From NCBI GenBank assembly GCA_031273835.1, contig JAISRD010000188.1, positions 1 through 36,849 of the forward strand: DNA of 36,849 nt, read 5' to 3'. The translations under genes were made by a program, and so were the position numbers. A model generated the notes under the pieces. The model saw only the letters and a list, made by a program, of their open reading frames with translations, did no database searches and had not been told where the DNA came from. The DNA is from Treponema sp. Its GTDB lineage: Bacteria > Spirochaetota > Spirochaetia > Treponematales > Breznakiellaceae. Shown here piece after piece: positions 2,033 through 36,849 of this stretch. Numbering within the stretch: the first letter of the stretch is position 1; the number at the start of each line of letters is the position of its first letter.

Positions 2033-3496
2033 ATGTACAGGCCCTACATCAAACCGGTGGCCGAGGCTTCGCCGGATGTAAAAGTACCCAAATCCCGGCG
2101 TTCCAAATTTGTGCTGCTGGTATGTAGAATACTGGGGCGTATCTACCTTTTCTTCTTTCTCGGCGTCGTCAGGATAGTGCTTCGTAAGGGCGAGCATATT
2201 GCCGGGGCGTATAAACGGGCCTTGGCGGGGGACAGCCGCTGCATCATAGCCTTCCGCCATCCCAACGGAGGGGAACCCCAGCTTTTAATGTGGTTTATTC
2301 TCTTCAAACTCAGGGCCATGGCCCGGAAATTCCGTATCCGCTTCGCGAAACAGCCCCATGTGTCCTTTGTATACGGCTATGAAGTGGTCCGCTGGGGCGG
2401 CGTTATTGCCCGGTGGGTCATGCCCGGTTTGGGGTCCCTGCCGGTACATCACGCCAAGGTGGATTCTGACGGCATGGCCCGGATCTTCAAGGCCATTTCC
2501 GAGGGCCCCTATCCCCTGGCCATCGCCCCGGAGGGGCAGGTCAGCTATACCACCGAAGCGGTGCCCCGTCTTGAACAGGGGACGGTACGCATAGGCTTCA
2601 AGGCCGCGGATCGCCTCTACCGGGAAGGAAAGACCTGTCCCGTGGAGATACTGCCGGTATCCATACATTTCCGCTACGGCAGGATGGGACAGTGGTCCTT
2701 AAATAAGCTTTTGCGCAAAATAGAGAAATATACGGGCTTCGGCGGGCTCCGGGACAAGGCCCCCTTTTCCGAGCGCCTCAGGCGGGCCAGGGATCGTATC
2801 CTGGAACATAACGAAAAACGTTACCGCCTCAGCCCCCAGGGTTCCGCCGACGGAAATCAGGATTCCGCTAGCGGAAACCGGGGTTCCTTTGACGAACGGA
2901 TCGACGCGATCATGGACGCCGCGCTGGACAGGGCGGAAAAGATACTGGGCATTAAAACCAAGGGCAACGATCTGATGGAAAGGGTCTACCACATCAGGCA
3001 AATCTGCTGGGACAGGATGATCATCCCCGGCATAACCTCCTTCAAGGGCCGCAGCCTCATGGAACGGGCTGTGGCGGATCTTAACTGCGGCGAAGCCTGG
3101 TATGCCTCGCGGCACATGGAATTGGTGGATTTTTGCTGGTATTTCAGGATACCCATACCGGAAGAAACGGCGCCCCTCTATATAAAGCTCGAATATGTTC
3201 AAAACCTCTGGGATTTTGCCAACCGCAGCATGGGCGGGGCCTATTCAAACCGGGTTTTCAATGTCCATCCGAAACGGGTGCTGATCCAGGTCGCCCCGGT
3301 GATAAACTTAAGCGCCCGGCTTAAGGAATACCATGAAAACAAAAAAGAGGCCATAAAAGCGGTCATGGAAGACCTTAAGAACTCATTTCTGGACTGCATA
3401 CAGGAAGCGGCGGAGTACCAGATCTGGGGGGGATTATGCCCTGCATCGCAGAAGCCCTTGCCTTCGGATGGGATAAACTCAAGTCGGGCGGTATAG
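2033..3496 (+). CDS. Phospholipid/glycerol acyltransferase (PlsC/LPLAT) family protein with a C-terminal extension of about 250 aa
   Basis: There is an N-terminal hydrophobic segment, an acyltransferase block I-like FRHPNGGEP (H-x4-E rather than H-x4-D) and a block III-like IAPEGQVS. Confidence 0.65.
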   Translation: MYRPYIKPVAEASPDVKVPKSRRSKFVLLVCRILGRIYLFFFLGVVRIVLRKGEHIAGAYKRALAGDSRCIIAFRHPNGGEPQLLMWFILFKLRAMARKFRIRFAKQPHVSFVYGYEVVRWGGVIARWVMPGLGSLPVHHAKVDSDGMARIFKAISEGPYPLAIAPEGQVSYTTEAVPRLEQGTVRIGFKAADRLYREGKTCPVEILPVSIHFRYGRMGQWSLNKLLRKIEKYTGFGGLRDKAPFSERLRRARDRILEHNEKRYRLSPQGSADGNQDSASGNRGSFDERIDAIMDAALDRAEKILGIKTKGNDLMERVYHIRQICWDRMIIPGITSFKGRSLMERAVADLNCGEAWYASRHMELVDFCWYFRIPIPEETAPLYIKLEYVQNLWDFANRSMGGAYSNRVFNVHPKRVLIQVAPVINLSARLKEYHENKKEAIKAVMEDLKNSFLDCIQEAAEYQIWGGLCPASQKPLPSDGINSSRAV

Positions 3497-6344: not shown

Positions 6345-6345
6345 C

Positions 6346-7551
6346 GTGAAAAAATTGATAAAGGCGGTAAAATACGGCGTCTTTCCCCTATGTCTCCTCT
6401 GCCTGTTTGGGGGCTGTAAGGAACCGGACACCGTCGCCCCCCGTATAGAGGAACAGCCGCCTCCCGCTCCGAAAATCTCCACCCTCACCATAGTGGCCGC
6501 CGGGGATAATCTGATCCACGATATCATCTACCTGGCCCAAAGGCTCCCCGGCGCGGAGGAAAGCTACAATTTTGATTCCTGCTATGAGCATATCAAACCC
6601 CTCATAGAGCGGGCGGATCTGGCCTTTGTAAACCAGGAAACGATCATGGGCGGGAAGGCCCTGGGTCATTCGGGTTACCCCGTTTTCAACACCCCCCAGG
6701 AAAACGGGGACGCCCTGGTAAAAGCGGGCTTTGACGTGATAAACCAGGCTTCCAATCACAGCCTGGACAAGGGCGAGGCGGCGGTTTTCAATACCATGGA
6801 TTATTGGGATAAACGCCGGGACGTGAGTTATTTAGGCCTGTTCAGAACAGCGGAAGACAGGGCGAACCGTAAAACCATTGTCGAAAAAAACGGCATTAAG
6901 GTAGGTTTTCTTTCGTATACCTACGGACTCAACGGCTTTTCCCTGCCAAAGGACAAACCCTGGCTGGTCCCTCTTATCGATACCGCGGTAATGGCCGGTG
7001 AAATTGACGCCCTGCGGCCCCTATGCGATTTGCTGGTGGTTTCCATGCACTGGGGAAATGAATTCAGCCACGAGATCAGCCTCCGGCAAAAGGAACTTGC
7101 CCTGTTCATGGCGGAACACAGGGTAGATCTTATTCTGGGCCACCATCCCCATGTAACCGGGCCCATGCATGTTATTTTCAGGCCCGACGGCGGCAGACTT
7201 GTATGTTACTATTCCCTGGGTGATTTTATTTCTCACACCCAGTCCGACAGAACGCCGGATACCATGCTGGGCGCCCTGGCCTATGTCAGGGTAAAAAAGA
7301 CAAGCACAGCCCCCTCCGCCGGAGAGTCCGGCAAAAGCACCACGACCATTGAGGAGGCCCGGGCCATTCCCACGGTAAGCCACTACGGTAAAGGGAGGAG
7401 GCCCCCCTTTACCGTATACCCCCTCTACGATTACAGCGACGAACTGGCCGCCCTCCATTACAAGAACACTACCCTGGATTACCTTAAAGGGGTATCGTTA
7501 AAAATTTTCAGTATTTATATGCTGAACGAAAATCCCTTTAAGAAGCCTTGA
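6346..7551 (+). CDS. CapA-family (PGA_cap metallophosphatase-like) lipoprotein
   Basis: GTG start 1 nt after the relA stop. Lipobox LFGGC. CapA blocks IVAAGDNLIHD, NQETIMGG, ASNHSLD, VSMHWGNEF and GHHPH are present. Confidence 0.8.
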   Translation: MKKLIKAVKYGVFPLCLLCLFGGCKEPDTVAPRIEEQPPPAPKISTLTIVAAGDNLIHDIIYLAQRLPGAEESYNFDSCYEHIKPLIERADLAFVNQETIMGGKALGHSGYPVFNTPQENGDALVKAGFDVINQASNHSLDKGEAAVFNTMDYWDKRRDVSYLGLFRTAEDRANRKTIVEKNGIKVGFLSYTYGLNGFSLPKDKPWLVPLIDTAVMAGEIDALRPLCDLLVVSMHWGNEFSHEISLRQKELALFMAEHRVDLILGHHPHVTGPMHVIFRPDGGRLVCYYSLGDFISHTQSDRTPDTMLGALAYVRVKKTSTAPSAGESGKSTTTIEEARAIPTVSHYGKGRRPPFTVYPLYDYSDELAALHYKNTTLDYLKGVSLKIFSIYMLNENPFKKP

Positions 7552-7729
7552 CCGCGCTCTTCTTTCCGTGGGCCACCGCCGCCTTACAGGTCTTGCATAC
7601 CTTTACTTTAGTCCCCTCCGCTTCAAGTTCGTAGAGGATCTTTACATTCTTTCTTTCACAAACAGGGCAGGTTCCCCTTCCGCGGGAAACCTGATCCCGA
7701 ATTCCCTTACCCCTGTGCGCCTTCGACAT
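7538..7729 (-). CDS. Basic zinc-ribbon mini-protein (63 aa), last gene of the ribosomal alpha operon
   Basis: MSKAHRGKGIRDQVSRGRGTCPVCERKNVKILYELEAEGTKVKVCKTCKAAVAHGKKSAVKAS. It has CPVC...CKTC and is rich in Lys/Arg. An AGGGGG RBS lies 5 nt upstream, the gene starts 9 nt after the rplQ stop, and its 3' end overlaps the convergent capA-like gene by 14 nt. Confidence 0.6.
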   Translation of the reverse strand: MSKAHRGKGIRDQVSRGRGTCPVCERKNVKILYELEAEGTKVKVCKTCKAAVAHGKKSAVKAS

Positions 7730-7738
7730 ATCTACCCC

Positions 7739-8161
7739 CTAGGCTCTTTTTTTCGCGGACTTCTCGGCTTTCTTAGCCTTCTTGTCATCCTTGTCGGTTT
7801 TAAGAACATAATCCACCAATTCAAGGAACACAAGCTCCGCCGCGTCCCCGAAACGCTCGCCGAGTTTGATGATACGGGTATAACCGCCGGGCCTGTCCTT
7901 CATGCGAAGGGCTATATTGGTAAACAGCTTAGCTACTATGCCTTCATCGTAGAGGCGGCTGGAAACAATGCGCCGGTTATGAACCGAATCGATCTTTGCC
8001 CTGGTTATAAGCTTTTCCGCGCTCCGCCTTACCGCCAAAGCCTTGGTTTTAGTGGTTTTGATCCGTTCATGCCGGAACAGGGAGGTAACCATATTACGGT
8101 GCAGGGCCTTACGGTGAGCGGACATGCGCTCAAGGGGGTTAAAGCCTCTTCTATGCTTCAT
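7739..8161 (-). CDS. rplQ: 50S ribosomal protein L17
   Basis: [28 protein letters not shown]..., positioned after rpoA, with a Lys-rich C-terminal tail. Confidence 0.95.
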
Positions 8162-9206
8162 CTTCTTCTTCCTTCCGGGGTGTAACCCTTACAGCGTTCC
8201 GCAGGAGATTTACATCGGTAATCCCCAGGCCCAGGTTCCACTCCTTGAGTTTTTCCTTTATCTCCTGGAGTGATTTTTTGCCGAAATTCCTTGTCTTGGC
8301 GATATCGTCCTCGGTCTTTCTGGTAAGTTCCCCAATGGTTTTAATGTTGGCGTTTTTAAGGCAGTTGCTGGAACGGACGGATAACTCAAGCTCTTCCACC
8401 GGCGTACCAAGTATCTGCCTGATACGGTTGTCATCCGGATCATCATCCAGTTCGGCGCTCAGGCTGTTTTCATCAAAGTTGATGAAAACCGAAAGGAGGT
8501 CCTTTGCTATTTTCGCAGCCTCCGCCAGGGCGTCATCGGGTTTGACCGTACCGTCGGTCCACACTTCCAGGACCAGCTTATCATAATCGTTGCGCTGCCC
8601 TACCCTGGTGGGTTCCACGGAGTATTTTACCTTTTTAACCGGCGAATAAATGGCGTCCATGGGTATCGTACCGATCACTTCCACATAAAGCGCGTTGGAT
8701 TCGGCGGGCACATAGCCCCGTCCCAGATCGATCTGTACCTCCATTTCCAGCCGGGCGTTATCCATCAAGGTCATTACATGCTGGCCGGGGCTTAATATCT
8801 CTACCTGGCCTTCGCGGTTAAAATCCTCGCTCTTTATATCCGCCTTTCCCGACCATTCATACAGAAGAAGGTTCTGCTCCATATCCTGAGGGAGGCGCAG
8901 CCTTATCTGTTTGAGGTTGTTGATAACCTCAAGGGTATCCTCCACAATATTGGGGATGGTCTCAAATTCACTGGAAACCGTATGCGCGTTCCCGTCGGCA
9001 TCATAGGAGCTTATCTTGACCGCCGTAATGGCATACCCTTGAATTGAGGAAAGCAGAACCCTCCGCAGGGTATTCCCCACGGTCGTACCAAAACCCGGTT
9101 CAAAGGGAGCGGCAATGAACTTTCCGTAATTCGGCCTAAGTTCACTATGCTCAAAGGTAATACCTTTTGGACGTTTGAATCCTTTAGTCAGATTCTTACG
9201 GGCCAT
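8151..9206 (-). CDS. rpoA: DNA-directed RNA polymerase alpha subunit
   Basis: NTD motif [15 protein letters not shown] helix-hairpin-helix [22 protein letters not shown], and alpha-operon position. Confidence 0.95.
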
Positions 9207-24139: not shown

Positions 24140-24162
24140 CTTAATATAACAAAGGCAATGCT

Positions 24163-24807
24163 ATGAAGGAAATAGAAAACTCCGGATACGGGTCCCTCCG
24201 GGCCTCTTTCCTGGAGTTCCGTGAAAAATACCGGGAGCGGAAAGAAGAAATCCGGGCCCTCCTTGCGAAAACAGAGGCCGCAAAGAGGGAAACCCTTGGA
24301 TTTCTAAAAAAGGCAAACCGCTGTACCCGGTATTTAACCGGAAAACAAAGGCGGGAAACGGGAATTTTGTACCACCCCGGTTTTTTTGATTCCCGCATCA
24401 GAGGGCATACCCGGCCTGTCCCCGTTACCCCTTCCTCCCCCGATCTGAAAAGGGAAATTCCGCCGGAATTTCCCGGAAAAAAGCTCCCCCGGGAGCTAAA
24501 GGAGGAAGAAATAAAACTGCTCCGCCTTATCAATTCCCTAAAAAAAGAACTTTTAGCCCTGGATCTCCTGGAAATGCGGTGCCGGGAACTGCTTCTTTCG
24601 GCCGCAAAAGCCCTGGAAGCGTTTACCCATGAATACCGCCTCATACGCCGCCGTATCTACCCCTTCAGGTTCTTCAGCGCCCTCTCCAAATCCTTCCGTC
24701 GCCTGCGGGGGCTTTCTTATTTTTCGTCCGGGGATCTGCGGGAACTGACGGTTCTGGGGGAGCTTACCGGCCATGTAGTAAAAATAGCCGATTCACCGGT
24801 ACTATAA
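24163..24807 (+). CDS. Hypothetical basic coiled-coil protein (214 aa), no recognisable family
   Basis: An ATG ORF downstream of the strong promoter. It has a K/E/R-rich helical N-terminus, a Pro-rich linker (HTRPVPVTPSSPDLKREIPPEFPGKKLP) and a helical C-terminus (RRRIYPFRFF). No signal peptide or TM segment. The antisense ORF is a Ser/Arg/Phe-rich shadow. Confidence 0.6.
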   Translation: MKEIENSGYGSLRASFLEFREKYRERKEEIRALLAKTEAAKRETLGFLKKANRCTRYLTGKQRRETGILYHPGFFDSRIRGHTRPVPVTPSSPDLKREIPPEFPGKKLPRELKEEEIKLLRLINSLKKELLALDLLEMRCRELLLSAAKALEAFTHEYRLIRRRIYPFRFFSALSKSFRRLRGLSYFSSGDLRELTVLGELTGHVVKIADSPVL

Positions 24808-25420: not shown

Positions 25421-26830
25421 TTAAGTACCGCGCTCCGCCGCCGCTTCCAGGGCCGCCCTGATCCGCTCCGTTTCGTTTTCCGCCCCCCCGTATTCGGCGA
25501 GGATACGGCTTACTTTTTCGTAGCCCAGTACCGGCACATAGGACGCGGCAAAGGCACGGGAAGCGTTGAGCAGGGCGGCGCAGCGCTCGGGGTCGGCCTT
25601 GAGGGTTTCCACGCATTTGGTACGGAAAAGGAAACAGCCGTCTTTAAGGAGGCTTAGGCTTTCCAGCAGCGCGTCGGCCATGAGGGGGGCAAAGGCGTTC
25701 AGTTCAAATTCCCCACGGGAGGCGGCCATGGAGATCGCAGCGTCGTTGGCGCAGATCTTGATGCCCAGTTGTATCACCATTTCGGGGATCACGGGGTTGA
25801 CCTTACCCGCCATGATCGTGCTTCCCTTTTGAAGCGGGGCCAGGCGGATCTCGGCGAAGCCCCCACGGGGGCCCGAATTCATCAGCCTGAGGTCCCCGGC
25901 TATCTTCATCAAGTTCACCGCCAGGGCTTTAAGGAGTCCCGATACTTCCACAAAGACGTCCCAGTTCTGGGTCAGGTCCATGGGGTACTCCGCCGCCGCC
26001 AGGCCTATGCCGGTGATCCTCCGCAGTTCCTCGACGACCCGGTGGCGGTAACGGCGGAACGCCGCGGTATCCCCGGCCTTTGCAGCCGCGCCGCCCGCCC
26101 CGGGGCCCGCAAGGAAACCGGGGCCCCCCACCGCCGCGCCGCCGAGGTTTACCTGACGGAGCCTTTCTTCCACCTTGTAAAGCCGCCACCTGTCCCGGGC
26201 TATGGCCTGGGCGTAGGCGCCGAATTCCTCCCCCAGGGTAACGGGCACGGCGTCCATGAGCTCGGTGCGGCCCAGCTTACCTATACCGGCGTATTCGTTT
26301 TCTTTTTTTTGCAGGGCCTCCTGGAGGGCGGCGCAGGCTTCGGAAAGCTCCCGTAAAAGTTCGACGGCGGCAATGCGGAGCGCCGTGGGGTACACGTCGT
26401 TGGTGGACTGGAAACGGTTCACGTCCTCCAGGGGATGAAGGGCGCCGTAATCGCCGGGTTTCTTCCCCATGATGACCAGGGCGAGGTTGGACAGCACTTC
26501 GTTGACGTTCATGTGGGCCGAGGTTCCCGCCCCGCCCTGGAGGGCGCTGGTGATAAAGTCGCCGTCCGCTTTTCCGGCCAGGACCCTGTCGCAGGCTTCG
26601 GCGACGGCGCGGAATTTTTCCGCCTCCCCCGGCCTTTCCCCGGTTTCGGCGTAGAGTTCGGCGAAGACCAGGGCGGCGGCTTTCTTTACCTTTACCATGG
26701 CGTAAATAAGGCGGAGGTTTACCCTTTTATAGTCCAGGGCGAAATTCTCCCCCGCCCGGGCGGCTTCCAAACCGTAGAGGGCCTCATCGGGAAGGGATAA
26801 GGACCCCAGCCCGTCCTTTTCGATACGCAT
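25421..26830 (-). CDS. Aspartate ammonia-lyase-like protein (fumarase/aspartase lyase_1 superfamily)
   Basis: GAGTSAHMNVNEV, FQSTNDVYPTA (aspartase-type STND) and SS-loop signature GSTIMAGKVNPVIPE. It starts 5 nt after the hydF stop. Confidence 0.8.
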   Translation of the reverse strand: MRIEKDGLGSLSLPDEALYGLEAARAGENFALDYKRVNLRLIYAMVKVKKAAALVFAELYAETGERPGEAEKFRAVAEACDRVLAGKADGDFITSALQGGAGTSAHMNVNEVLSNLALVIMGKKPGDYGALHPLEDVNRFQSTNDVYPTALRIAAVELLRELSEACAALQEALQKKENEYAGIGKLGRTELMDAVPVTLGEEFGAYAQAIARDRWRLYKVEERLRQVNLGGAAVGGPGFLAGPGAGGAAAKAGDTAAFRRYRHRVVEELRRITGIGLAAAEYPMDLTQNWDVFVEVSGLLKALAVNLMKIAGDLRLMNSGPRGGFAEIRLAPLQKGSTIMAGKVNPVIPEMVIQLGIKICANDAAISMAASRGEFELNAFAPLMADALLESLSLLKDGCFLFRTKCVETLKADPERCAALLNASRAFAASYVPVLGYEKVSRILAEYGGAENETERIRAALEAAAERGT

Positions 26831-26834
26831 CGCC

Positions 26835-28085
26835 TTAAACGCCGTCCAGTTCGGCCAGGATATGGGGGAAGACGGCGATACAGCGCCTGAGTATGCCCTG
26901 GATGTGGGCGATGGCGACCCCGTAGTTGGTAAAAGCTACGCGCTGATCGGCGGCGCAGTCCCGGCGGTAACGCAGTTCCCTGTCGTTGAGCATACAGGCG
27001 CCGCAGTGGATTATCATCCTAAAGGGAGAAAGATCTTCGGGAAAATCCCCGCCGGAGCTGAAAACAAATTCCGGCCTTTTCCCCGTGTGCTGTTTTATCC
27101 ACCGGGGGAGTTTTACCGTGCCGATGTCGTCGCACTGCCGGTGATGGGTACAGCCCTCGCAGATCAGCAAGCGGTCCCCGTCCTCGATGCGGTCAAGGAC
27201 CGCCGCTCCCCGGACCGCGGGGGCGAGGAAACCCTTGTACCGGGCGAAGAGTATCGAAAACGAGGTGAGGGGTATGTCCTCGGGCGTATCGGCGGAGACC
27301 TTGGCAAAGACCTGGCTGTCGGTGATTACCAGGGCGGGTTTTTTCCCGATATTTTCCAGGGTTTCCCGCAGCTCGAATTCCTTGACCACCACGGCCGCCG
27401 CGTCCGCTTCCAGTATGTCCCGTATGGTCTGCTGCTGGGGAAGGATCAAACGGCCCCTGGGGGCGGCTTTGTCGATGGGGGTTACCAGTACCACAAAATC
27501 GCCGGGCCGGATCAGGTCCCCGGCGATACGGAGTTTCGGTTCTTCAGGTTTAGCCAGGGCGGCCATACGCTCCTTGAGCAGGTCAATGTTGAAGCCCGTC
27601 TTCGCGCTGACCAGGAGGGCGTTGTCCGGTCCCGCCGGGCCGCCGGCAGGTTCCGCCGCGGCGGCGCTTCCCGGTCCCGCCGGGCCGTCAAGTAAATCGC
27701 TTTTATTGTACGCGGTAATCCAGGGGATGCGCTTTTCCTGAAAAAGGGCGGCCAGTTCCCGGTCGGCGGCGCTTAAGCCCGCGGGGGCCTCCGTTACCAG
27801 TACGGCCAGATCGGTCCTGTTAAGAACCTGTTTGGCCTTCCGTACCCGCAGTTCCCCCAGGGGCCCTTCGTCGTCAAAGCCCGGCGTATCTATGATCAGC
27901 ACCGGCCCCAGGGGGAGCAGTTCCATGGCCTTGGAAACGGGATCGGTGGTGGTTCCCTTGATTTCCGAAACAACCACAAGGTCCTGGCCGGTAACGGCGT
28001 TTACCAGGCTTGATTTGCCGGCGTTTCTCCGACCGAAAAAACCGATGTGGACCCGGCCGGCCGCGGGGGTGTCGTTAAGGCCCAT
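26835..28085 (-). CDS. hydF: [FeFe]-hydrogenase H-cluster maturation GTPase HydF
   Basis: GTPase motifs G1 GRRNAGKSS, G3 DTPG, G4 NKSD. The C-terminal FeS motif is CEGCTHH ... 45 residues ... HCGAC (the CxHx(44-53)HCxxC pattern). Confidence 0.85.
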   Translation of the reverse strand: MGLNDTPAAGRVHIGFFGRRNAGKSSLVNAVTGQDLVVVSEIKGTTTDPVSKAMELLPLGPVLIIDTPGFDDEGPLGELRVRKAKQVLNRTDLAVLVTEAPAGLSAADRELAALFQEKRIPWITAYNKSDLLDGPAGPGSAAAAEPAGGPAGPDNALLVSAKTGFNIDLLKERMAALAKPEEPKLRIAGDLIRPGDFVVLVTPIDKAAPRGRLILPQQQTIRDILEADAAAVVVKEFELRETLENIGKKPALVITDSQVFAKVSADTPEDIPLTSFSILFARYKGFLAPAVRGAAVLDRIEDGDRLLICEGCTHHRQCDDIGTVKLPRWIKQHTGKRPEFVFSSGGDFPEDLSPFRMIIHCGACMLNDRELRYRRDCAADQRVAFTNYGVAIAHIQGILRRCIAVFPHILAELDGV

Positions 28086-28087
28086 AC

Positions 28088-28945
28088 TTAGACCGGTATT
28101 TCAAAAACCCCTTCAAGGATGTGCCGGGGCTGATAGGGATAGCGGTTTACCTCCTCCAGTCTGGTTACTCCTGAAAGTACCAGAACGGTTTCGATCTCCG
28201 ACTCGACCCCGGCCTGAATATCCGTATCCATGCGGTCCCCGATTATGGCCGTTTCTTCCCGTTTAACGTTAAGCCTGCGGAGGCCGTGCCGCATCATCAG
28301 CGGATTGGGCTTTCCCACAAAATAGGCCTTCTTACCCGTGGCAAGTTCTATGGGGGCCACCAGGGCGCCGCAGGCGGGTACGATGATCCCCCCCTCAATG
28401 GGGCCGCTCAGGTCGGGGTTTGTTCCGATAAGCCGGGCGCCGCCTTCAATAAGCTTTACCGCCCGCTCAAGAGCCTCAAGGCTGTAACCCCGGCCCTCGC
28501 CGACCACCACATAATCGGGATTCACGTTGTTCATCGTAAAGCCCGCGTCGTAGAGGGCCTGGATCAGCCCCGGCTCGCCTATGGCGTACACCGACCCGCC
28601 GGGCCGCTGGGAGGCAAGAAAACCCGCCGTGGCCAGGGCGCTGGTGTAAAAGTGTTCCGGATCAACGTTGATCCCCAGCCGTGAAAGCTTTTGGGACAGT
28701 TCCAGCGGAGAGCGTTCGCTGGAATTGGTAAGGAAAAGGAAGGCCTTGTTATTGGCCTCCATCCATTCCACCAGTTCAAGAGCGCCCTTAAGGAGCTGAT
28801 TTCCATGGTAGATCACCCCGTCCATATCAATGATAAAGGCCTGCTTGGACCTTATCTGATCAATATCCGGTTTCATATACAAACTATAATCTTCTTTTAC
28901 TCCGGTTTGCAATGCCCCGTTGAAATCAAAAGGCCGTTCTTGCAT
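28088..28945 (-). CDS. HAD-IIA (NagD-like) sugar/nucleotide phosphatase
   Basis: FIIDMDGVIY (DxDG), FLTNSS, GKPNP, GDRMDTDI. The alternative ATG at 28876 would give 262 aa, which is closer to typical NagD length, and it is preceded by a promoter-like element (see next feature). Confidence 0.8.
   Translation of the reverse strand: MQERPFDFNGALQTGVKEDYSLYMKPDIDQIRSKQAFIIDMDGVIYHGNQLLKGALELVEWMEANNKAFLFLTNSSERSPLELSQKLSRLGINVDPEHFYTSALATAGFLASQRPGGSVYAIGEPGLIQALYDAGFTMNNVNPDYVVVGEGRGYSLEALERAVKLIEGGARLIGTNPDLSGPIEGGIIVPACGALVAPIELATGKKAYFVGKPNPLMMRHGLRRLNVKREETAIIGDRMDTDIQAGVESEIETVLVLSGVTRLEEVNRYPYQPRHILEGVFEIPV
28883..28912 (-). promoter_or_regulatory. Candidate promoter giving a leaderless transcript from the alternative HAD start (28876)
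   Basis: The reverse strand reads TTGCAA (28912-28907), 18 nt, TATAGT (28888-28883), 6 nt, ATG (28876). Confidence 0.3.
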
Positions 28946-29002: not shown

Positions 29003-29521
29003 ATGATAAAAGAATCCATCGCAAAGGCCCTCAGCGAGCAGGTCAACGCCGAATACTATTCGGCCTATCTGTACCTTGCCATGTCGGCCCACGCGGACAG
29101 GGCCGGTTATAAGGGCATAGCAAACTGGCTTTTTGTTCAGGCCCGGGAGGAGACGGCCCACGGGACCCATCTGTATCAGTATATTCTTGAACGGGGGGCC
29201 TCTCCCGTCTTCAAGGATATTAAAGCGCCGGAACTGTCCTTTTCAGGGGTTACGGAAATTTTTGAAAAGGTTCTGGCCCATGAACGGTATGTAACGGGGC
29301 TTATCAATAAAATTGCCGGATTGGCCCAGGAAGAACAGGATCACGCGGGCTATAACTTTATTATGTGGTATGTGAATGAGCAGGTAGAAGAAGAAGCTAC
29401 TGCGGATGAACTCCTTACCAAGATCAGGATGGCGGAAAATTATCCCGGCCTGCTCTTTACCATTGACGCCGAACTGGGGAACCGGACCTTTGTCGATCCC
29501 TTTGGGGGGACCGCCGGCTGA
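29003..29521 (+). CDS. ftnA: Non-haem bacterial ferritin
   Basis: LSEQVNAEYYSAYLYLAMS, ferroxidase ligands in REETAHG and WYVNEQVEEE, 172 aa, with a GGAG RBS at 28991. Confidence 0.88.
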   Translation: MIKESIAKALSEQVNAEYYSAYLYLAMSAHADRAGYKGIANWLFVQAREETAHGTHLYQYILERGASPVFKDIKAPELSFSGVTEIFEKVLAHERYVTGLINKIAGLAQEEQDHAGYNFIMWYVNEQVEEEATADELLTKIRMAENYPGLLFTIDAELGNRTFVDPFGGTAG

Positions 29522-29531
29522 GCTCCCTCCC

Positions 29532-31502
29532 ATGATAGTCGTACTTTCCAGGGGCATTTCATCCTACGATAAAGAATTGGTCCGCATTTATCTGCGGGAC
29601 CGGGGCTTTGCGGTCCGGGACCAGCAGTTCGGCGACGATGAGGTAATCGGCGCGGCGGGCAAGGGGGTCCTCGATCTGCGGGAACTGGGGCTGCTTCCCG
29701 GTGTGGAACGGGTTGCCGCCACCAGCAAACCCTATGAACTGGCCTCCCGGGAAACCAAGGCGGAGGATACCATTGTCAGCGTCGGCGGAAGCGGGGGAAT
29801 GGTAAAGATAGGCGGCTCCCGGATCACCGTGATTGCCGGACCCTGCGCCGTGGAAAGCAGGGAGCAGATACGGGAGACCGCCGCCCGGGTGCGGGAATCC
29901 GGGGCGGTGCTGCTGCGGGGGGGGGCCTTTAAGCCCCGGTCCAGCCCCTATGCCTTTCAGGGCCTGGGGATGAAGGGCCTTGAGTACATGAAGGAAGCGG
30001 GGGACGCCGAGGGGATGCCTATTGTTACCGAGGTGGTTTCCCCCGAATATGTGGTGGAGATGAAGGACCTTACCGATATGTTCCAGATTGGGGCCCGGAA
30101 TATGCAGAACTTCGCCCTCCTGAAAAAAGTGGGTTCCGTGGGAAAACCCGTGCTCTTAAAGCGGGGGCCCTCGGCGACCATTGAAGAATGGCTCCTCTCG
30201 GCGGAATATCTGCTTGCGGCGGGGACCAACGACGTGGTGCTCTGCGAGCGGGGTATACGTACCTTTGAAACCTATACCCGTAATACCCTGGATATTTCGG
30301 CGATTCCCGTGGTGAAGACCCTTTCCCATCTTCCGGTCATTGTCGATCCCAGCCACGCCGTAGGCATACGGGCCAAGGTCGCCCCGGCGGCCCTGGCGGC
30401 CATCGCGGCGGGGGCCGACGGCCTTACCGTGGAAGTCCATCCCCGGCCGGACGAAGCCCTCTCCGATGGCCCCCAGTCCCTTTACCCGGAACAGTTTGAA
30501 AAGCTTATGCGGGACATTGAAGCCCTGGCCCCGGTGGTGGGGAAGGAACTGCTCCGTACGCCGCGGCCTGAGGGAACGGCGGCGGGCAGGCGGGGGGGCC
30601 CGCAGGCGGGCAGCCTCTTTGAGGGATTTACGGCTTTGCCCGTGGCCTATAACGGGGAAAGCGGGGCCTTTGCCGAACAGGCGCTGATGCGTATTTTCGG
30701 GGAAGACGTAAAGCGCAGGCAGGTCCAGTCATTCAAGGAGGTCTTTGACGCCGTGCTGGACGGTTCGGTCTGCGCCGGGGTGATGCCGGCGGAGAACAGC
30801 CTTTCGGGGAGCATCCATGAAAATTACGATCTCTTTCTGAGGTACCCCGATATTGCCATCGTGGGGGAACTTAAACTCAGGATCGTACACTGCCTTATAG
30901 GGGATGAACACGCCCGTTTGGACACGATTTCCATAGTCCGCAGCCATCCCCAGGGTTTTGCCCAGTGCAAGGAATTCCTGGACAAGTATCCCGGATGGCA
31001 GCTTGAGGCCTGCAACAATACCGCCGCGGCGGTGGCCTCAATCGCCCGGGAAGGGGCCGTTAAGGTGGCGGCCATTGCCGGCGCCGCCGCCGCCAGGGCC
31101 CACGGATTAAAGGTGTTGAAGGAAGGGATTGAGACCAACCCCCTCAACTATACCCGTTTTCTTATTATCAGCAGAAAAATTTCCGGCAGGGATGGAGAGT
31201 GGTTCGGCAATGCCTGGGTTCCCCCCAGCCTGGGTTCGGAAAAGCCCAACAAGGCAAGCCTGGTATTCTCGGTCCCCGATAAACCCGGATCGCTTTTTGC
31301 CTGCCTCAAGATCATGGCCGACCGGGGGATCAACCTTTCCAAGCTCGAATCCCGGCCCATTCAGGGAAAGCCCTGGGAATACCAGTTCTACGCGGACGTA
31401 TCCCTCCCGGAAACCGAGGGGGATTTTGCCCTGATCATGGAAGAGTTAAAAACCAAAACCGAGGACTTTAGATTTTTGGGCGCTTACCGGGGTTCGCTTT
31501 AA
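29532..31502 (+). CDS. Fusion protein: N-terminal ACT/ferredoxin-like regulatory domain + type I-beta DAHP synthase + prephenate dehydratase + C-terminal ACT domain
   Basis: The start MIVVLSRG... matches my recollection of the N-terminus of Thermotoga-type regulated DAH7PS. DAHPS blocks: IAGPCAVES, LRGGAFKPRSSPYAFQGLG, FQIGARNMQNF, KRG, CERGIRTFE, VDPSH, VEVHP.P..ALSDG. PDT blocks: VAYNGESGAFAEQA, MPAENSLSGSI, SHPQGFAQC, TRF. ACT block: KASLVFSVPDKPGSLFACL...ESRP. The upstream extension in the ORF track overlaps ferritin and is rejected. Confidence 0.85.
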   Translation: MIVVLSRGISSYDKELVRIYLRDRGFAVRDQQFGDDEVIGAAGKGVLDLRELGLLPGVERVAATSKPYELASRETKAEDTIVSVGGSGGMVKIGGSRITVIAGPCAVESREQIRETAARVRESGAVLLRGGAFKPRSSPYAFQGLGMKGLEYMKEAGDAEGMPIVTEVVSPEYVVEMKDLTDMFQIGARNMQNFALLKKVGSVGKPVLLKRGPSATIEEWLLSAEYLLAAGTNDVVLCERGIRTFETYTRNTLDISAIPVVKTLSHLPVIVDPSHAVGIRAKVAPAALAAIAAGADGLTVEVHPRPDEALSDGPQSLYPEQFEKLMRDIEALAPVVGKELLRTPRPEGTAAGRRGGPQAGSLFEGFTALPVAYNGESGAFAEQALMRIFGEDVKRRQVQSFKEVFDAVLDGSVCAGVMPAENSLSGSIHENYDLFLRYPDIAIVGELKLRIVHCLIGDEHARLDTISIVRSHPQGFAQCKEFLDKYPGWQLEACNNTAAAVASIAREGAVKVAAIAGAAAARAHGLKVLKEGIETNPLNYTRFLIISRKISGRDGEWFGNAWVPPSLGSEKPNKASLVFSVPDKPGSLFACLKIMADRGINLSKLESRPIQGKPWEYQFYADVSLPETEGDFALIMEELKTKTEDFRFLGAYRGSL

Positions 31503-31536
31503 CCGCGGGGACAGCCTGAACGCCGTATTGTTTGGC

Positions 31537-32928
31537 TTATCTTCCGCCGACGCCGCCAGAAGCAACCTGCATACCTTCCCGCAGGGGGGCGCCGTTACCA
31601 AGGGCAATCACTTCCCCGGCGGCAAGGCCCGAAAGAACTTCCCGTTCTCCCCCGGGAAGTTCCGCTCCCAGCGCCACCTTCCGTTCAAAGGCTTTTCCCC
31701 GGATAATAACAAATACGGTTCCCTCGTCTCCGTTCCGGTTAAGTACCGCGTCCTGGGGAACGGCAACACAGCGCCTGGGGGGTCCCGCGCTGATACTGAC
31801 CCTGGCAAACATGCCGGGCTTTAAGCTTTCCCCCACTTCCTGTCCCGAAAGTAGTATACGGACAGTAAAGGTAAAGGATTGGCTGTCCGCCTGGGGGGCG
31901 ACAAGATCGACCGTTCCGCCGTAGGTCCCCCCGGCGCCGTCCACCGTTACGGATGCATCCATGCCCTTTTGAAGGCGCATGGCGTCCCCTTCATTCAGGG
32001 TGATTATCGCATAGAGCGATTCGGTGTCGATGAGGGTAAGTATCTTATCGCCCCGGCCGGCCCGTTCCCCCGTCTCCAGATAGCGGGCCCCCACGGTCCC
32101 CGATACGCCGGCATATATATTCAGTTCCGCAAAGGCCAGCCGGGCGGATTCCAGTTCCTTGGCCGCCGCTTCCAGCTGGGCTTCGGCGGCTTCCAGTTCC
32201 GCCCTAAGGGTAGAAACGGCAAGTTGAACCAGGGCGGCGCTGCGGTCGGCCTCACCGGGAAAGCCCCCCGGAGGTATCAGGCCCGCGGCGGACAGATCCC
32301 TGTCCCGGAGGCCCACGGTCCGTATCTCCAGATCCTGTTCCATGAGCCGTATCTGTTCCGCCCCGCTGTCCAGGTTAAAACGGCTCCCCCGTATCTCTTC
32401 TTCGCTCAAACCCCCGGCTTCATAGAGTTTTTCCTCACCGTTCTGTTTGCGCTGGGCTTCGGCATAGGCCCTGCGGGTCTGGGCCAGTTCCGCCTCGGTT
32501 TTAGCGATGCTCAACAGCTCCGCCTCGGCGCTGAAACGGCCCTCAAGCAGGCGGGCCTGTGCGAGCTTTACCGCCGCCTGGGTCTGGGCATAGGCGTTCT
32601 CCGCCCTGCCCACCGCAAGCTTGATCTGGGGATTGTCCAGGATCAGAACCAGGGCGCCTGCCCGCACGGCGTCCCCCTCACGGTAGTAAAGGCGGCCGAT
32701 AATTCCGTCCTGGGGGGCGGTAATATCCACCTTGGTCAGGAAGGAAAGGGCGCCGAATCCTGAAAGTTCATCAGGGATAACACGTTCCGTAACGGTCAGG
32801 GTTTCAACGGTATGGACCGCCCCGTCGATATTAAGGTTCCCGGCCCTGCCGGCGCAGGAAGAAAAAACCATGCCGAGTAAAACCGGCGTAAACAGGATGA
32901 TTTTTCCCCGTCCAAAAAGATGGTTCAC
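31537..32928 (-). CDS. Efflux/secretion periplasmic adaptor (HlyD/MFP family) lipoprotein
   Basis: GTG start in a GTGA overlap with the OMF stop. Lipobox VFSSC. It has a lipoyl-like half (ITAPQDGIIGRLYYREGDAV ... IYAGVSGTV), a long Ala/Glu-rich coiled-coil hairpin and beta-barrel/MP domains. Confidence 0.85.
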   Translation of the reverse strand: MNHLFGRGKIILFTPVLLGMVFSSCAGRAGNLNIDGAVHTVETLTVTERVIPDELSGFGALSFLTKVDITAPQDGIIGRLYYREGDAVRAGALVLILDNPQIKLAVGRAENAYAQTQAAVKLAQARLLEGRFSAEAELLSIAKTEAELAQTRRAYAEAQRKQNGEEKLYEAGGLSEEEIRGSRFNLDSGAEQIRLMEQDLEIRTVGLRDRDLSAAGLIPPGGFPGEADRSAALVQLAVSTLRAELEAAEAQLEAAAKELESARLAFAELNIYAGVSGTVGARYLETGERAGRGDKILTLIDTESLYAIITLNEGDAMRLQKGMDASVTVDGAGGTYGGTVDLVAPQADSQSFTFTVRILLSGQEVGESLKPGMFARVSISAGPPRRCVAVPQDAVLNRNGDEGTVFVIIRGKAFERKVALGAELPGGEREVLSGLAAGEVIALGNGAPLREGMQVASGGVGGR

Positions 32929-34403
32929 CGTATTCCTCCTTGATGTACTATAAATTCACCCAGCGTTCCGGGTTTTAAATTCAACAGCCGTTCCAGTTCC
33001 CATTCCGCGGTCAGCAGGGCGGCCGCCGCTTCCACGGCCTCCGCCTCCTTCTGGGCATAGAGGAGCCGTTCTTCCATCAGTTCCACCCTGGTGATACGCC
33101 CCAGGGTAAGGAGCAGTTCCTGGAGCCGGTATTTTTCCTCCGCCAGGCCGAGGGCTTTCAAAGCCGAGGCTTTCCTTTCCCCGCTGAGTATCATCTTTTC
33201 CAGTCCCAGCGCCGCGGATCGTCCTACCCTTTCCCGGCTGAGGCGCAGATTTTCCCGTTCCAGCGCCAGGGCAAGCCGGGCCTGTTTTGGGTTCAGCGCC
33301 GACGCCGGATCGGGCAGGGGGCTTACGCTGGTTTGGGCCCTGGCGGTTCTGTCGTAGGGCGGTTCCCAGTCGGCGTTTCCCCCGGCGGAGACGCTGAACC
33401 AGGGGGAGGAAAATTGTACCGTAAGCCCCAGGGACCAGCTATAACGGCTTAGGGGGTAACGCTGACCGCTTACCGTAAAGGAAGCGGAACCCCGCAGCGA
33501 GGGAATCCACGACAGGGACGCAAACTTTGATTCGGCCTGCTTTTGCAGGACACTGTGGTACAGGGCGGCAAGATCGGCGTTCCGTACCAGCGCCGCCCGG
33601 CGGATCAGCTCCGCCTCCGCCTGGGGAGGAGACCGGTGCAGGTCCACGGTCTCACTCAACGGGGGAAGTTCCTCAAGTCCCAGGATTGCGGCAAATTCCT
33701 TTTCCAGTTCCTGAAGTTCCAGCCTTAGGGAGTACAGTTCCAGTTCCGCTTCCTTAACGGTGATTTCCCCCTCCTTAAGTTCCAGGGGGATCACCAGCCC
33801 CAGGGAAAGTTCCTCGGCAAGTATACGCTGCTGTTCCCGCAGGGATTCCAGGGCCGATTCCCGTATGGAGACGATCATGCGCGCCGAAAGTATCTGCCGG
33901 TAAGCGCCCAGGGCGGATTCGGCAAGCCGGGAAGAAAGGCCCTCAATTTCATCCGACATGAGGGTAATCTCAGCCTTTTCAAGGCCCCGGGACATCCGGG
34001 TCCTTCCCCCGTCCCACAGGAGCTGATCAAGGCTGACGGTATAATTTTTCAAAAAGGAATCGCTGCCGATTTTGGAAAGCCTGTCGTCCTCCGAGGCGCC
34101 CAGGGAAAACTGGGGAAAATAAGCCCGTAATCCCAGGACCCAGCCCCCTTCCCGCAAAGCCCGGCGGGCATGGGCGGCCTTAAGTTCCGTTGAATTGACC
34201 AGGACGAGGTTTACCGCGTCGTCAAATCCAAGGGGCCTTTCCTGCCGTCCCGAAGCCTCCGCCACGGGGCGTACCGGGCTTTGTTCGGCGGGGCCGGTGG
34301 AATATGCCGGCGGGGTCCCGCCCGGCGGCAGAAACAAAAACAGCGGCAGGAAAAGCATAAGGCCCGGCCTCCGTCCCGGCAGGGCTTGTCCCAGGGCCCT
34401 CAT
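32925..34403 (-). CDS. TolC-like outer membrane factor (OEP family)
   Basis: It has a signal peptide, the N-terminal motif LGFDDAVNLVLVNSTELKAAHAR and two internally repeated helical/beta units. 492 aa. Confidence 0.8.
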   Translation of the reverse strand: MRALGQALPGRRPGLMLFLPLFLFLPPGGTPPAYSTGPAEQSPVRPVAEASGRQERPLGFDDAVNLVLVNSTELKAAHARRALREGGWVLGLRAYFPQFSLGASEDDRLSKIGSDSFLKNYTVSLDQLLWDGGRTRMSRGLEKAEITLMSDEIEGLSSRLAESALGAYRQILSARMIVSIRESALESLREQQRILAEELSLGLVIPLELKEGEITVKEAELELYSLRLELQELEKEFAAILGLEELPPLSETVDLHRSPPQAEAELIRRAALVRNADLAALYHSVLQKQAESKFASLSWIPSLRGSASFTVSGQRYPLSRYSWSLGLTVQFSSPWFSVSAGGNADWEPPYDRTARAQTSVSPLPDPASALNPKQARLALALERENLRLSRERVGRSAALGLEKMILSGERKASALKALGLAEEKYRLQELLLTLGRITRVELMEERLLYAQKEAEAVEAAAALLTAEWELERLLNLKPGTLGEFIVHQGGIR

Positions 34404-34930
34404 TTTTGTTCCGGTCCGGCGCTCCGGTCCAGGCCCGCCAGGGCTTTTGAAAGGGCAAGCTTCAAGAGCCTGGTGAGTGTCTTGGATGACGCAAGGCTTT
34501 TCTTCCCCGAAAGCACCGCCCGCCCCGCCGACGCAAGCGGGGCCCCGCCATCCTCCTTCCAGATCCGTATTTCCGTGGAAAGGGAACGTTTGGTAGTCCA
34601 GCCCGAAGGATACTCCCGTTCAATCACCACCGTGTCTATACGGTAATCCGCCCCGCCTTCCACCGGGACATAACCCCGTTCAAGCAGCAACAGGGGAAGG
34701 AGCCCCCCGATTTCTCTTTCAAGGGAATTCCAGTCCGAACCCTTATCGGCCTTAACCGTTCCGATCCGTACCCTTCCCCCAGGAAAAACATTACGCCGGG
34801 TCTCCGGGCCGGACCAGCCCTGTCCCGAAGCTATGGGCACATCGAAGGTCGAACAGGCCGTAATCAAACAAAAAACACAGATAAAAACCGGGACGGCGAT
34901 AAAAGCGCCGCAGGTAAAATTCCCCTTCAT
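34400..34930 (-). CDS. Uncharacterised lipoprotein (176 aa)
   Basis: Signal peptide with lipobox LITAC. Mixed alpha/beta mature domain. ATGA overlaps on both sides. Confidence 0.7.
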   Translation of the reverse strand: MKGNFTCGAFIAVPVFICVFCLITACSTFDVPIASGQGWSGPETRRNVFPGGRVRIGTVKADKGSDWNSLEREIGGLLPLLLLERGYVPVEGGADYRIDTVVIEREYPSGWTTKRSLSTEIRIWKEDGGAPLASAGRAVLSGKKSLASSKTLTRLLKLALSKALAGLDRSAGPEQK

Positions 34931-35598
34931 GGCTGATCCTTTGTTTTTCCCGCCGAGGCAATGCGAAAACGGAGTTCCCCGACGCTCCGGCTGATATAAC
35001 TATCCCTGGGAAGCAGAGCCTCCGCCCTGCCCAGATCCTCCAAAGCCCCCGTCCCGTTCCCCCCGGTCCAGCGGAGTTTCGCCCTGTCAATAAACACCAG
35101 GGCCGTCTCGGAGGAATGTTCCACGGCCCTGTCCAGCAGGGCCGCGGCGCTTTCCGTATCTCCCCCTTGAAGGGCAAGGTCCGCGCCGAGCCGCAGGGCC
35201 CTTAAATCCTGGGGATTATCCCTGATAAGGAGTTCCGCCGTTTTGCGGGCTTCCTCATTCCTGTCCGTATCCCGGAAGATCCGGGCAAGAAAAAGAGAAG
35301 CCTCCGCCGAACGGGGATTGTATTTCAGCGCCCTGTGGAAGGATTTCTCCGCCTCCTCAAGGCCGCCGCTAAAGTACAGGGCCTTTCCCCGCAGTACCAG
35401 CGCCGGGGAAAAATCATCTATTTCGGCAAGCATCAAAGCGGCCTTGTCAAAATTCCCCCGGGAATATTCGGCGGAAGCCTGGGCATAGCGGAACAGCGTT
35501 TCCTCACCGGCCTTTTCCCCGCCGCATGAAAGGAAGAAGGCCATGATGAACATGGCGATCCCCATACGGCGGGGTTTTATAAAGAGGCGGACCCTCAT
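34927..35598 (-). CDS. TPR-repeat lipoprotein (223 aa)
   Basis: Basic n-region followed by FFLSCGG. TPR-like units include GNFDKAALMLAE, LEEAEKSFHRALKYNPRSAEASLFLARIF and EEARKTAELLIRDNPQD. Confidence 0.75.
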   Translation of the reverse strand: MRVRLFIKPRRMGIAMFIMAFFLSCGGEKAGEETLFRYAQASAEYSRGNFDKAALMLAEIDDFSPALVLRGKALYFSGGLEEAEKSFHRALKYNPRSAEASLFLARIFRDTDRNEEARKTAELLIRDNPQDLRALRLGADLALQGGDTESAAALLDRAVEHSSETALVFIDRAKLRWTGGNGTGALEDLGRAEALLPRDSYISRSVGELRFRIASAGKTKDQP

Positions 35599-36611
35599 AA
35601 AGCGGTCCCGGTAATATACTCAAGCCTTTCCGCTAAACGGCCCCGGGCCTTTTCCGCTTCCCCGTTGAGCCAGCTCTTGAACATGGGCTCAGCGGTAAGG
35701 GCGCGGAGTATGCCGGCGGCATAGATCGTATGAAGGTTATCCGGTAAAGCTATGAGGGGAAGTATATCTTCGAGAAGTTCCGGCTTTTGCCGGATAACGG
35801 CGTCCTGTATGAGCCCCTCAATCTCGGCGCGGGTCCGCAGGGCCTTTCCGTCATCGGCGCCGAGCCCCGAAACGCGGGCCAGTATGGACCTGCATTCGGG
35901 GGCAAAGGGGCCGGAACCGGCCAGGTCGATACAGCGTTCCGCATAATCCCCGGCGGCGTTTCCTGAAAAGGTCCGGGCCCCCCGGTACCAGTATTCGGGG
36001 AAGGAACTGTAACGGGCCCTTACCGCTCCATAGGCGGAGCGGGTTTCACGGGAGATTCCTCCCCCTTCCAGGGAACATACCAGCAGCATCCACCGGATAA
36101 ACGAATCGGGTTCCGTTTCCCCGGGAAAGAGTTCCGTTAAAAGGGCTTGGGCCTCGGTCCAGCGGCCGTTAAAGAAATCCAGCGCGGCCCGGGCGGCTTT
36201 GTCCGCTTCCTCCGCCGCCTTGGGACCGCCGGAACCGGCAAATTCCAGTTCCCCGACCTTGGCAAGACCTTCTTCAATAGCTTCCCTGTTTATCCCCTCC
36301 AGCCCGTGGGCATAGGCCCAGGAAAGCTCTTTATAAACGGCGATCACCGCGCCGGCATAATCCCCCGACTCTTCCCGCAGTTTACATTCCGCAATACCCA
36401 TGCCGGGAACAAAACCGCCGGACCGCTCCAATTCGGCAAGTTCCTCAAGTTGTTCAGGATACCCGGAAACGGCGGAATCCGTTTGAATGACGGACCGCTT
36501 CCGTCCCGCCGTATCCGGCGCTTCCGGAGAAGGGTCCGAAACGGTACAGGCGCCGAAAACCAGCAGGACGGCGAGGAAAGCCGGAAAAACCGGTACATTC
36601 CGTATTGTCAT
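35595..36611 (-). CDS. Uncharacterised helical lipoprotein (338 aa), first gene of the envelope operon
   Basis: Signal peptide with VFGAC lipobox. A GGAGG RBS lies 5 nt upstream of the ATG at 36611. All-helical, repeat-like composition. Confidence 0.7.
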   Translation of the reverse strand: MTIRNVPVFPAFLAVLLVFGACTVSDPSPEAPDTAGRKRSVIQTDSAVSGYPEQLEELAELERSGGFVPGMGIAECKLREESGDYAGAVIAVYKELSWAYAHGLEGINREAIEEGLAKVGELEFAGSGGPKAAEEADKAARAALDFFNGRWTEAQALLTELFPGETEPDSFIRWMLLVCSLEGGGISRETRSAYGAVRARYSSFPEYWYRGARTFSGNAAGDYAERCIDLAGSGPFAPECRSILARVSGLGADDGKALRTRAEIEGLIQDAVIRQKPELLEDILPLIALPDNLHTIYAAGILRALTAEPMFKSWLNGEAEKARGRLAERLEYITGTAL

Positions 36612-36849
36612 AATAACCTCCGGGAGGGAAATTTCCCCCTTTCACTCCCTAAGAGGCGCTTGACATCATCTTTGCTTTAATTATTCACATGGAGCCGGGT
36701 GTTTTTTTGACAGCCCGGGCAATCGGAGGGAATGATTTTATGTAAAGACTCAAAAAAAGTATTTCTGAAAACTCACCACAAAAATCCTCTTATTCACTAT
36801 ATTTCCATTGCGCGATATACTGGTAAACTGAGCTGGAAAGGGCTTTGGC

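Follow-up and report, generated by a model that had tools for sequence, protein, structure and literature searches.

The window analysed here, a stretch of 36,849 nt (36.8 kb; positions 1 to 36,849 of contig JAISRD010000188.1) from a Treponema sp. genome, carries near one end five minus-strand genes encoding two lipoproteins of helical-repeat type (L1 and a tetratricopeptide repeat, or TPR, protein), a third small lipoprotein (L3), a TolC-family outer-membrane factor (OMF) and a membrane fusion protein (MFP) adaptor. These five genes are almost certainly the first five of an eight-gene system of the resistance-nodulation-division (RND) type, with the order L1, TPR, (L3), OMF, MFP, BigA, BigB, RND. 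An initial annotation had read the locus as an envelope operon in which the lack of a pump was part of the design. It proposed to test whether the block is conserved across Spirochaetota, and the same order recurs in ~140 related Spirochaetia loci. These loci overturn the pump-less design, because in 84 of the 86 that could be evaluated the adaptor gene is followed by two Big_5 genes and an AcrB-family RND gene. We think that the window probably encodes an outer-membrane duct with scaffold lipoproteins and an adaptor, served by an RND pump encoded elsewhere.

The eight-gene cluster in related genomes

Related loci were taken from species-representative genomes (58) and metagenomes (80), gene order was established by blastx against reference proteins, and junctions were tallied only in loci with enough downstream DNA. 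In these relatives the block continues on the same strand into genes for two Big_5 Ig-like lipoproteins (BigA and BigB, ~480-520 aa) and then for a ~1010-aa ACR_tran RND permease. L1 is followed by TPR in all 126 loci, and TPR by OMF, with or without L3 between them, in all 112. The remaining steps have few exceptions: OMF to MFP in 98 of 99 loci (exception, L052), MFP to BigA in 84 of 86 (the window and L062), BigA to BigB in 77 of 79 (L022 and L032) and BigB to RND in 69 of 70 (L038). The full order is seen in termite-gut Treponema metagenome-assembled genomes (MAGs), in the isolate Treponema sp. TIM-1 and in non-termite Spirochaetales MAGs. Loci of the most distant L1 relatives, from non-termite Spirochaetia MAGs, also show all eight genes in this order, which makes the architecture an old one within Spirochaetia. 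No account of the cluster in treponemes turned up in literature searches.

All junctions in the relatives are overlaps or gaps of <=30 nt, which is consistent with a single transcript. The 4-nt overlap itself is not conserved: in 106 of 134 loci a short gap lies between L1 and TPR, and the overlap of MFP with BigA is longer. The uniform ATGA/GTGA pattern, which had been taken to suggest a fixed stoichiometry within one complex, is a trait of the window's lineage and is uninformative on stoichiometry.

The five-gene operon

In the window the block begins with L1 (35595..36611, minus strand), which encodes a 338-aa lipoprotein with lipobox FGAC and Cys22. It continues on the same strand with the genes for the 223-aa TPR lipoprotein (34927..35598; lipobox FLSC; TPR_16/TPR_19), the 176-aa lipoprotein L3 (34400..34930; lipobox ITAC; LptE/PelC-type alpha/beta fold in a predicted model), the 492-aa OMF (32925..34403; Pfam OEP; plain signal peptide, not lipidated) and the 463-aa RND-type periplasmic adaptor lipoprotein, MFP (31537..32928; lipobox FSSC; GTG start; RND_mfp). 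Neighbouring genes overlap by 4 nt at each of the four junctions, as ATGA at 35595-35598, 34927-34930 and 34400-34403 and as GTGA at 32925-32928. Frames, lengths and overlaps are exactly as first annotated, as are the lipobox-like signals in four of the five products, and profile searches support the TPR, TolC-family and HlyD/MFP calls (TPR_16, OEP at 91.8 bits and RND_mfp at 170.6 bits). GGAGG-type ribosome-binding sites precede the first (L1) and fifth (MFP) genes.

The boundaries of the block also agree with the first description. Upstream of L1 lies a non-coding stretch of 238 nt on the minus strand (36612..36849), the presumed promoter region, with a GC content of 42% versus ~60% in the operon genes. 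It reaches the window end, where the upstream view stops 238 nt from the L1 start, and contains no consensus sigma-70 site on the minus strand. L1 is likewise the first gene in relatives, preceded by an intergenic gap. At the other end, a 34-nt spacer (31503..31536) separates the MFP stop from the stop of a convergent DAHP synthase/PDT gene, and this spacer occupies the position of BigA-BigB-RND in relatives. The five-gene block is one tightly packed operon, and its arrangement is far beyond chance because all five genes have many same-order homologues elsewhere. The packing reflects co-transcription and probably translational coupling as well.

No similarity to BigA, BigB or RND was found anywhere in the 36.8-kb window, nor any gene for an RND, major facilitator superfamily (MFS) or efflux-type ATP-binding cassette (ABC) transporter. 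The reported lack of an ABC, RND or MFS inner-membrane component thus holds, the sole ABC component, and indeed the sole transporter component, of the window being a MalK-type importer ATPase (485-1696).

Origin and maintenance of the pump-less form

In a neighbour-joining tree of concatenated L1, TPR, OMF and MFP, the window and L062 are sisters, and the clade next to them (L005 and L008) carries the full set of eight. The L062 locus comes from an independent metagenome contig, and there too the operon stops after MFP, against different convergent genes. The simplest history is a single event, in the ancestor that the window and L062 share, that separated the last three genes from the operon. 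In L062 the gene that converges on MFP (5901-6422, minus strand) specifies a membrane protein of the "small multidrug export" type (PF06695), with a 4-nt overlap between the end of this gene and the MFP stop. Such a neighbour is probably coincidental, because the window has a different one.

The window and L062 have diverged to dS ~1 and 60-75% amino-acid identity, with five intact ORFs in both. Across the five genes dN/dS is 0.20-0.38 (MFP, 0.24), close to the 0.18-0.25 of an eight-gene sister pair. The window keeps 117 of 122 family-conserved columns in MFP, 73 of 77 in L1, 49 of 50 in TPR and 76 of 86 in OMF. By these measures the pump-less five-gene form is inherited and maintained by purifying selection.

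It is very improbable that the block is a remnant in decay, or that a chimeric assembly has fused the operon with unrelated DNA at 31.5 kb. Either would fit an operon that stops exactly where relatives continue, on a metagenome-type contig whose flanks are non-syntenic with any relative; a search of related loci for synteny of the window's flanking genes, as a test for simple deletion, found none. Both are made unlikely by the truncation shared with the independent L062, which has a different neighbour, by five intact ORFs over 5 kb with dN/dS of 0.20-0.38 at dS ~1, and by the GC content, which is continuous across the 31.5-kb junction (0.58-0.60 on both sides). The break also falls at a clean gene boundary, with MFP complete. 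A recent rearrangement of an ordinary MacAB-TolC locus, raised at the outset as a possible explanation, is right in that a pump is adjacent in relatives. It fails in that this pump is an RND and not MacAB, that five accessory lipoproteins are conserved and that the split is old (dS ~1).

Other truncated variants are also heritable, as L022 and L032 are sisters, and unrelated genes follow the break. Candidate alternative transporters after the truncated blocks of L052, L038 and L022 were considered and rejected, the genes found there being of TPR, cNMP-binding, amidohydrolase, OpuA-type importer and FKBP types. Every truncated variant keeps L1-TPR-(L3)-OMF, and L052 keeps nothing more. The duct together with its lipoproteins is therefore the minimal module.

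A duct probably served by a pump encoded elsewhere

The initial annotation had offered two alternatives. One was an OMF-MFP duct that works with a pump encoded elsewhere and carries dedicated lipoproteins; the other was a different machine spanning the outer membrane and periplasm. The first fits best. Its dedicated partners are confirmed, since the lipoproteins accompany the OMF in every related locus (L3 is absent from one sub-clade), while the location of the pump is something that we infer. Under this arrangement, a non-lipidated TolC-like trimer would form the exit duct in the outer membrane. L1, TPR and L3, that is, two helical-repeat proteins and one protein with a predicted LptE/PelC-like fold, would act as lipid-anchored scaffolds on its periplasmic side, positioning or stabilising it in a role akin to that of YbjP on E. 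coli TolC. The RND-type adaptor would join the duct to an inner-membrane RND pump. In the window's lineage the gene for the cognate pump would lie at another place in the genome, with or without those for the Big_5 lipoproteins, a step that we regard as on balance probable.

Several observations weigh against this arrangement. The pump gene was not found in the 36.8-kb window, so that its placement elsewhere is deduced. A genome scan of the MAGs of L022, L032, L038 and L052 saw no second L1-bearing locus, and a spare complete copy is therefore not a general explanation. The OMFs of the window and of L062 stand somewhat low in conservation (76-77 of 86 columns, ranks 9-10 of 83), and the L062 MFP keeps only 104 of 122 conserved columns; both could reflect some relaxation or retuning after the split.

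The main rival is that the outer-membrane module persists independently of a pump, with the OMF, three lipoproteins and adaptor working without an inner-membrane transporter after loss of the RND. Such a module may be an outer-membrane channel, a partial periplasmic tether, or an OMF shared with unrelated pumps beside an adaptor with another role. The idea is plausible given L052, which keeps only L1-TPR-L3-OMF with the OMF intact, so that a module of OMF plus lipoproteins evidently persists alone. TolC-type ducts, moreover, commonly serve several pumps, as E. coli TolC does. We nevertheless consider it unlikely for the window, where the adaptor retains 117 of 122 conserved positions at a dN/dS of 0.24, a level of constraint hard to reconcile with pump-facing surfaces that serve no purpose. 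We also know of no function for an RND-type adaptor without an inner-membrane partner.

Lipoproteins of the cluster

L1 is the signature protein of the system. It has no match in Pfam, NCBIfam or PDB chains in sequence searches, and an exact-protein look-up found no identical copies of the 338-aa protein on other contigs. Its homologues number >240, all annotated as "hypothetical" and almost all from Treponema/Spirochaetaceae of termite guts; of 1.84 billion cluster representatives, a profile search assigns 245 to the family. Among its conserved motifs are FPEYWYRGAR and GRLAERL. An AF2 model built from a 108-sequence alignment (pLDDT 89) predicts 17 helices in an all-alpha TPR-like solenoid. 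Foldseek returned generic TPR/solenoid proteins alone, all of them weak matches (E >= 0.03, TM <= 0.3), and the attempt to derive a specific function for L1 from its fold was dropped for this reason. On the model, L1 is best described as a helical-repeat scaffold of a new family that belongs to no described one.

Among the 108 homologues of L1, C227 is invariant and C179 and C240 are near-invariant in addition to the lipobox cysteine; these three residues may form periplasmic disulfides or bind metal. Distant homologues from non-termite Spirochaetia (L147:10001-11464, L148:2104-3519 and L145:10001-11623) are 470-540 aa long and carry ~170 extra N-terminal residues with TPR repeats. For the 470-aa forms, the idea that TPR and L1 are joined in a Rosetta-stone fusion was rejected, as a separate TPR gene is still present in those loci. 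In L145 and L146, from 3.5-Mb genomes, the L1 homologue is followed by a 181-189-aa ORF and then by transposase (rve) genes in place of an OMF, and this copy of the cluster seems to have been disrupted by mobile elements.

The TPR protein matches TPR_16 (E 2.6e-16) and TPR_19 (E 1.7e-13) and falls far below the cutoffs of all specific NCBIfam TPR families. L3 has no match in Pfam, NCBIfam or PDB chains in sequence searches. It is fast-evolving; single-sequence search retrieved only 5 homologues and profile search 40. The L3 gene is absent from a large sub-clade (L021, L026, L031, L035-L037, L039-L045, L049, L050 and many metagenome loci), in which TPR abuts or overlaps OMF, and because of this L3 is dispensable. 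Compensation for its loss by a lipidated OMF was rejected, since OMFs are non-lipidated with or without L3.

An AF2 model of L3, from an alignment built from database proteins (pLDDT 83), predicts a beta-alpha-beta-beta-beta-alpha fold. Its best Foldseek matches in the PDB are the CC_3750 lipoprotein, PelC, LptE and GNA1162 (E 2.5e-4 to 8e-3, probability ~1.0), with target-normalised TM of 0.45-0.57 (0.32-0.57 overall) and rmsd of 5-8 Å on the pLDDT-83 model. The likeness to LptE/PelC-type outer-membrane lipoproteins is a resemblance of predicted folds only. For BigA and BigB, sequence searches against PDB chains found nothing meaningful.

Duct, adaptor and pump

The OMF scores 91.8 bits against Pfam OEP (cutoff 22) in two stretches, or repeats, and 61 bits against the TIGR01844 TolC family, below its cutoff of 225; it has no PDB sequence match at E <= 1e-3. 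Across the family the OMFs have no consistent lipobox and are non-lipidated. The MFP matches HlyD_D23/HlyD_3 and, at 170.6 bits, TIGR01730 RND_mfp (cutoff 94.9), and lies far below the equivalog cutoffs for MacA (61.5 bits, cutoff 342), type I HlyD (TIGR01843; 44 bits, cutoff 208.65) and EmrA. Its best PDB relatives are AcrA, MexC-like and MacA proteins at ~49 bits. A long insert separates its lipoyl half-motifs, such that HlyD_D23 spans residues 69-375 for 193 profile positions.

The relatives' RND permease shares ~22% identity with E. coli AcrB and reaches 377 bits, versus a cutoff of 1250 for multidrug RND permeases. In a MAFFT alignment, which at 22% identity is unreliable for single residues, equivalents of D407 and R971 are kept (L035:17146-20181 and other loci). 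The same uncertain alignment places I/T/V/L at D408 and N at K940, with the Phe-cluster residues absent, and suggests an atypical proton relay or substrate pocket. In L021, L036, L037, L043 and L147 the cluster RND is directly followed by another ACR_tran gene, which is divergent and shares 24-30% identity with it.

These features bear on a different reading of the whole system, in which a machine specific to spirochaetes would export or assemble an envelope polymer, glycolipid or lipoprotein in place of small-molecule efflux. It would gain from the match of the predicted L3 fold to LptE and PelC, partners of the LPS and Pel polysaccharide translocons, and from the atypical RND (~22% AcrB identity, 377 versus 1250 bits, no equivalents of D408, K940 or the Phe cluster). 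TPR lipoproteins beside outer-membrane channels are, in addition, typical of polysaccharide export (AlgK/AlgE, PelB, BcsC and PgaA). This support is all at the level of folds or analogy, the AcrB alignment at 22% identity is unreliable for single residues, and no linked glycosyltransferase, synthase or Lpt/Lol genes occur in the loci inspected. We hold such a machine, in which L1, TPR and L3 would make a PelBC/LptDE-like outer-membrane-proximal assembly on a TolC-like duct, to be quite unlikely.

A bolder version would make the cluster a new trans-envelope machine, built from RND/TolC parts, Spirochaetia-wide and not a drug pump; we give it little credence. In this version one LptE/PelC-like and two TPR-type lipoproteins would form a ring around a TolC-like duct, and the exported substrate, an envelope lipid, glycolipid or polymer, would be handled by an atypical RND together with two Ig-like lipoproteins. 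The outer-membrane module (L1-TPR-L3-OMF, either with MFP or without it) would have enough autonomy to survive by itself, as in the window.

Comparison with known systems

Of the parts of a tripartite RND system, the window encodes an OEP/TolC-type OMF and an RND_mfp adaptor, with no RND permease beside the adaptor; in relatives the permease lies downstream in 69 loci. The cluster shares with AcrAB-TolC the OEP-family duct and the RND_mfp adaptor lipoprotein, and the operon of relatives also includes an ACR_tran pump. It differs from AcrAB-TolC in that the window has no pump gene, that genes for three dedicated lipoproteins precede OMF and that relatives have two Big_5 lipoprotein genes placed between those for adaptor and pump. 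The relatives' RND, at ~22% identity to AcrB, also falls far below the NCBIfam multidrug-RND cutoffs.

A lipoprotein partner of a non-lipidated duct is known from E. coli, in which YbjP attaches to the equatorial domain of TolC in a 3:3 ratio (PMC13082787, PMC13095208) and has the Tai3/DUF3828 fold (PMC13082787). Both systems combine a non-lipidated OMF with one or more lipoproteins, but the lipoprotein genes lie within the operon here, whereas ybjP is unlinked to tolC. Pfam searches gave no DUF3828 match in any of the three lipoproteins, and the resemblance to YbjP is one of functional analogy only.

Among spirochaetes, BesABC of Borrelia burgdorferi is likewise an RND-type system of OMF, adaptor and RND pump (PMC2279261). 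It is described as a three-gene system (PMC2279261, PMC3807786), and its BesA, for which there is a structure, is reported to have no alpha-hairpin (PMC3807786). The present cluster differs in its 463-aa adaptor, with a long insert between the lipoyl halves, and in five extra lipoprotein genes that make it an eight-gene system.

The comparison with LptE (the LptD partner) and PelC (the PelB partner) extends from the alpha/beta fold that the L3 model may share with them to gene context, as L3 is a small lipoprotein encoded beside an outer-membrane channel and TPR proteins. Unlike them, L3 has no similarity to either at the level of sequence families, is dispensable in a large sub-clade and neighbours a TolC-type duct, not a beta-barrel LptD/PelB translocon; no LptD- or PelB-like neighbour was found.

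MacAB-TolC and type I secretion (HlyBD-TolC) also pair an OMF with an adaptor, and the adaptor of the window is weakly similar to MacA and HlyD. The MacA and HlyD models score below cutoff, however, and the window and related loci contain neither a MacB-type ABC/FtsX transporter nor an ABC exporter of the type I secretion kind. The locus is neither MacAB nor type I secretion. Five operon-encoded accessory lipoproteins, two unannotated families and naturally split variants set the system apart from AcrAB-TolC/YbjP and BesABC.

Other genes in the window

The rest of the window holds ribosomal-protein, SecY, RpoA, EF-Tu, RelA/SpoT, HydF, ferritin and similar genes. The convergent neighbour of the operon is a single ORF (29406-31502, plus strand) in which DAHP synthase (DAHP_synth_1) and prephenate dehydratase (PDT) are fused together with an ACT domain; one protein thus covers both the first step and a late one in the synthesis of aromatic amino acids. 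As listed, this 698-aa ORF overlaps the ferritin gene (29003-29521), and its true start is therefore probably further downstream. The region with the window's highest GC content (25421-28945, minus strand; 0.62-0.64) carries the gene for the [FeFe]-hydrogenase maturation GTPase HydF (26835-28085) between Lyase_1-family and HAD hydrolase genes. Three further ORFs, at 2033-3496 (plus strand, 487 aa), 7568-8185 (plus strand, 205 aa) and 24141-24644 (minus strand, 167 aa), have no Pfam match at E <= 1e-5 and are candidate genes.

Significance

The lack of a pump gene at a single locus is not a design principle, and comparative context reverses such a reading. The "no pump" surprise is explained in this way; the conserved accessory lipoproteins and the maintained pump-less module are informative on the partner lipoproteins of OMFs. 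Two of the proteins represent families that neither Pfam nor NCBIfam contains. That TolC-type ducts have accessory lipoproteins was recognised only recently (YbjP, 2026). Here, three lipoprotein genes are fixed before the OMF and two before the pump across the class, which marks their products as functionally required partners and not incidental binders. The pump-less window and L062, together with the OMF-only L052, part the outer-membrane from the inner-membrane module and so provide a natural experiment on how far one depends on the other. The cultured Treponema sp. TIM-1 carries the full cluster, which makes these ideas testable.

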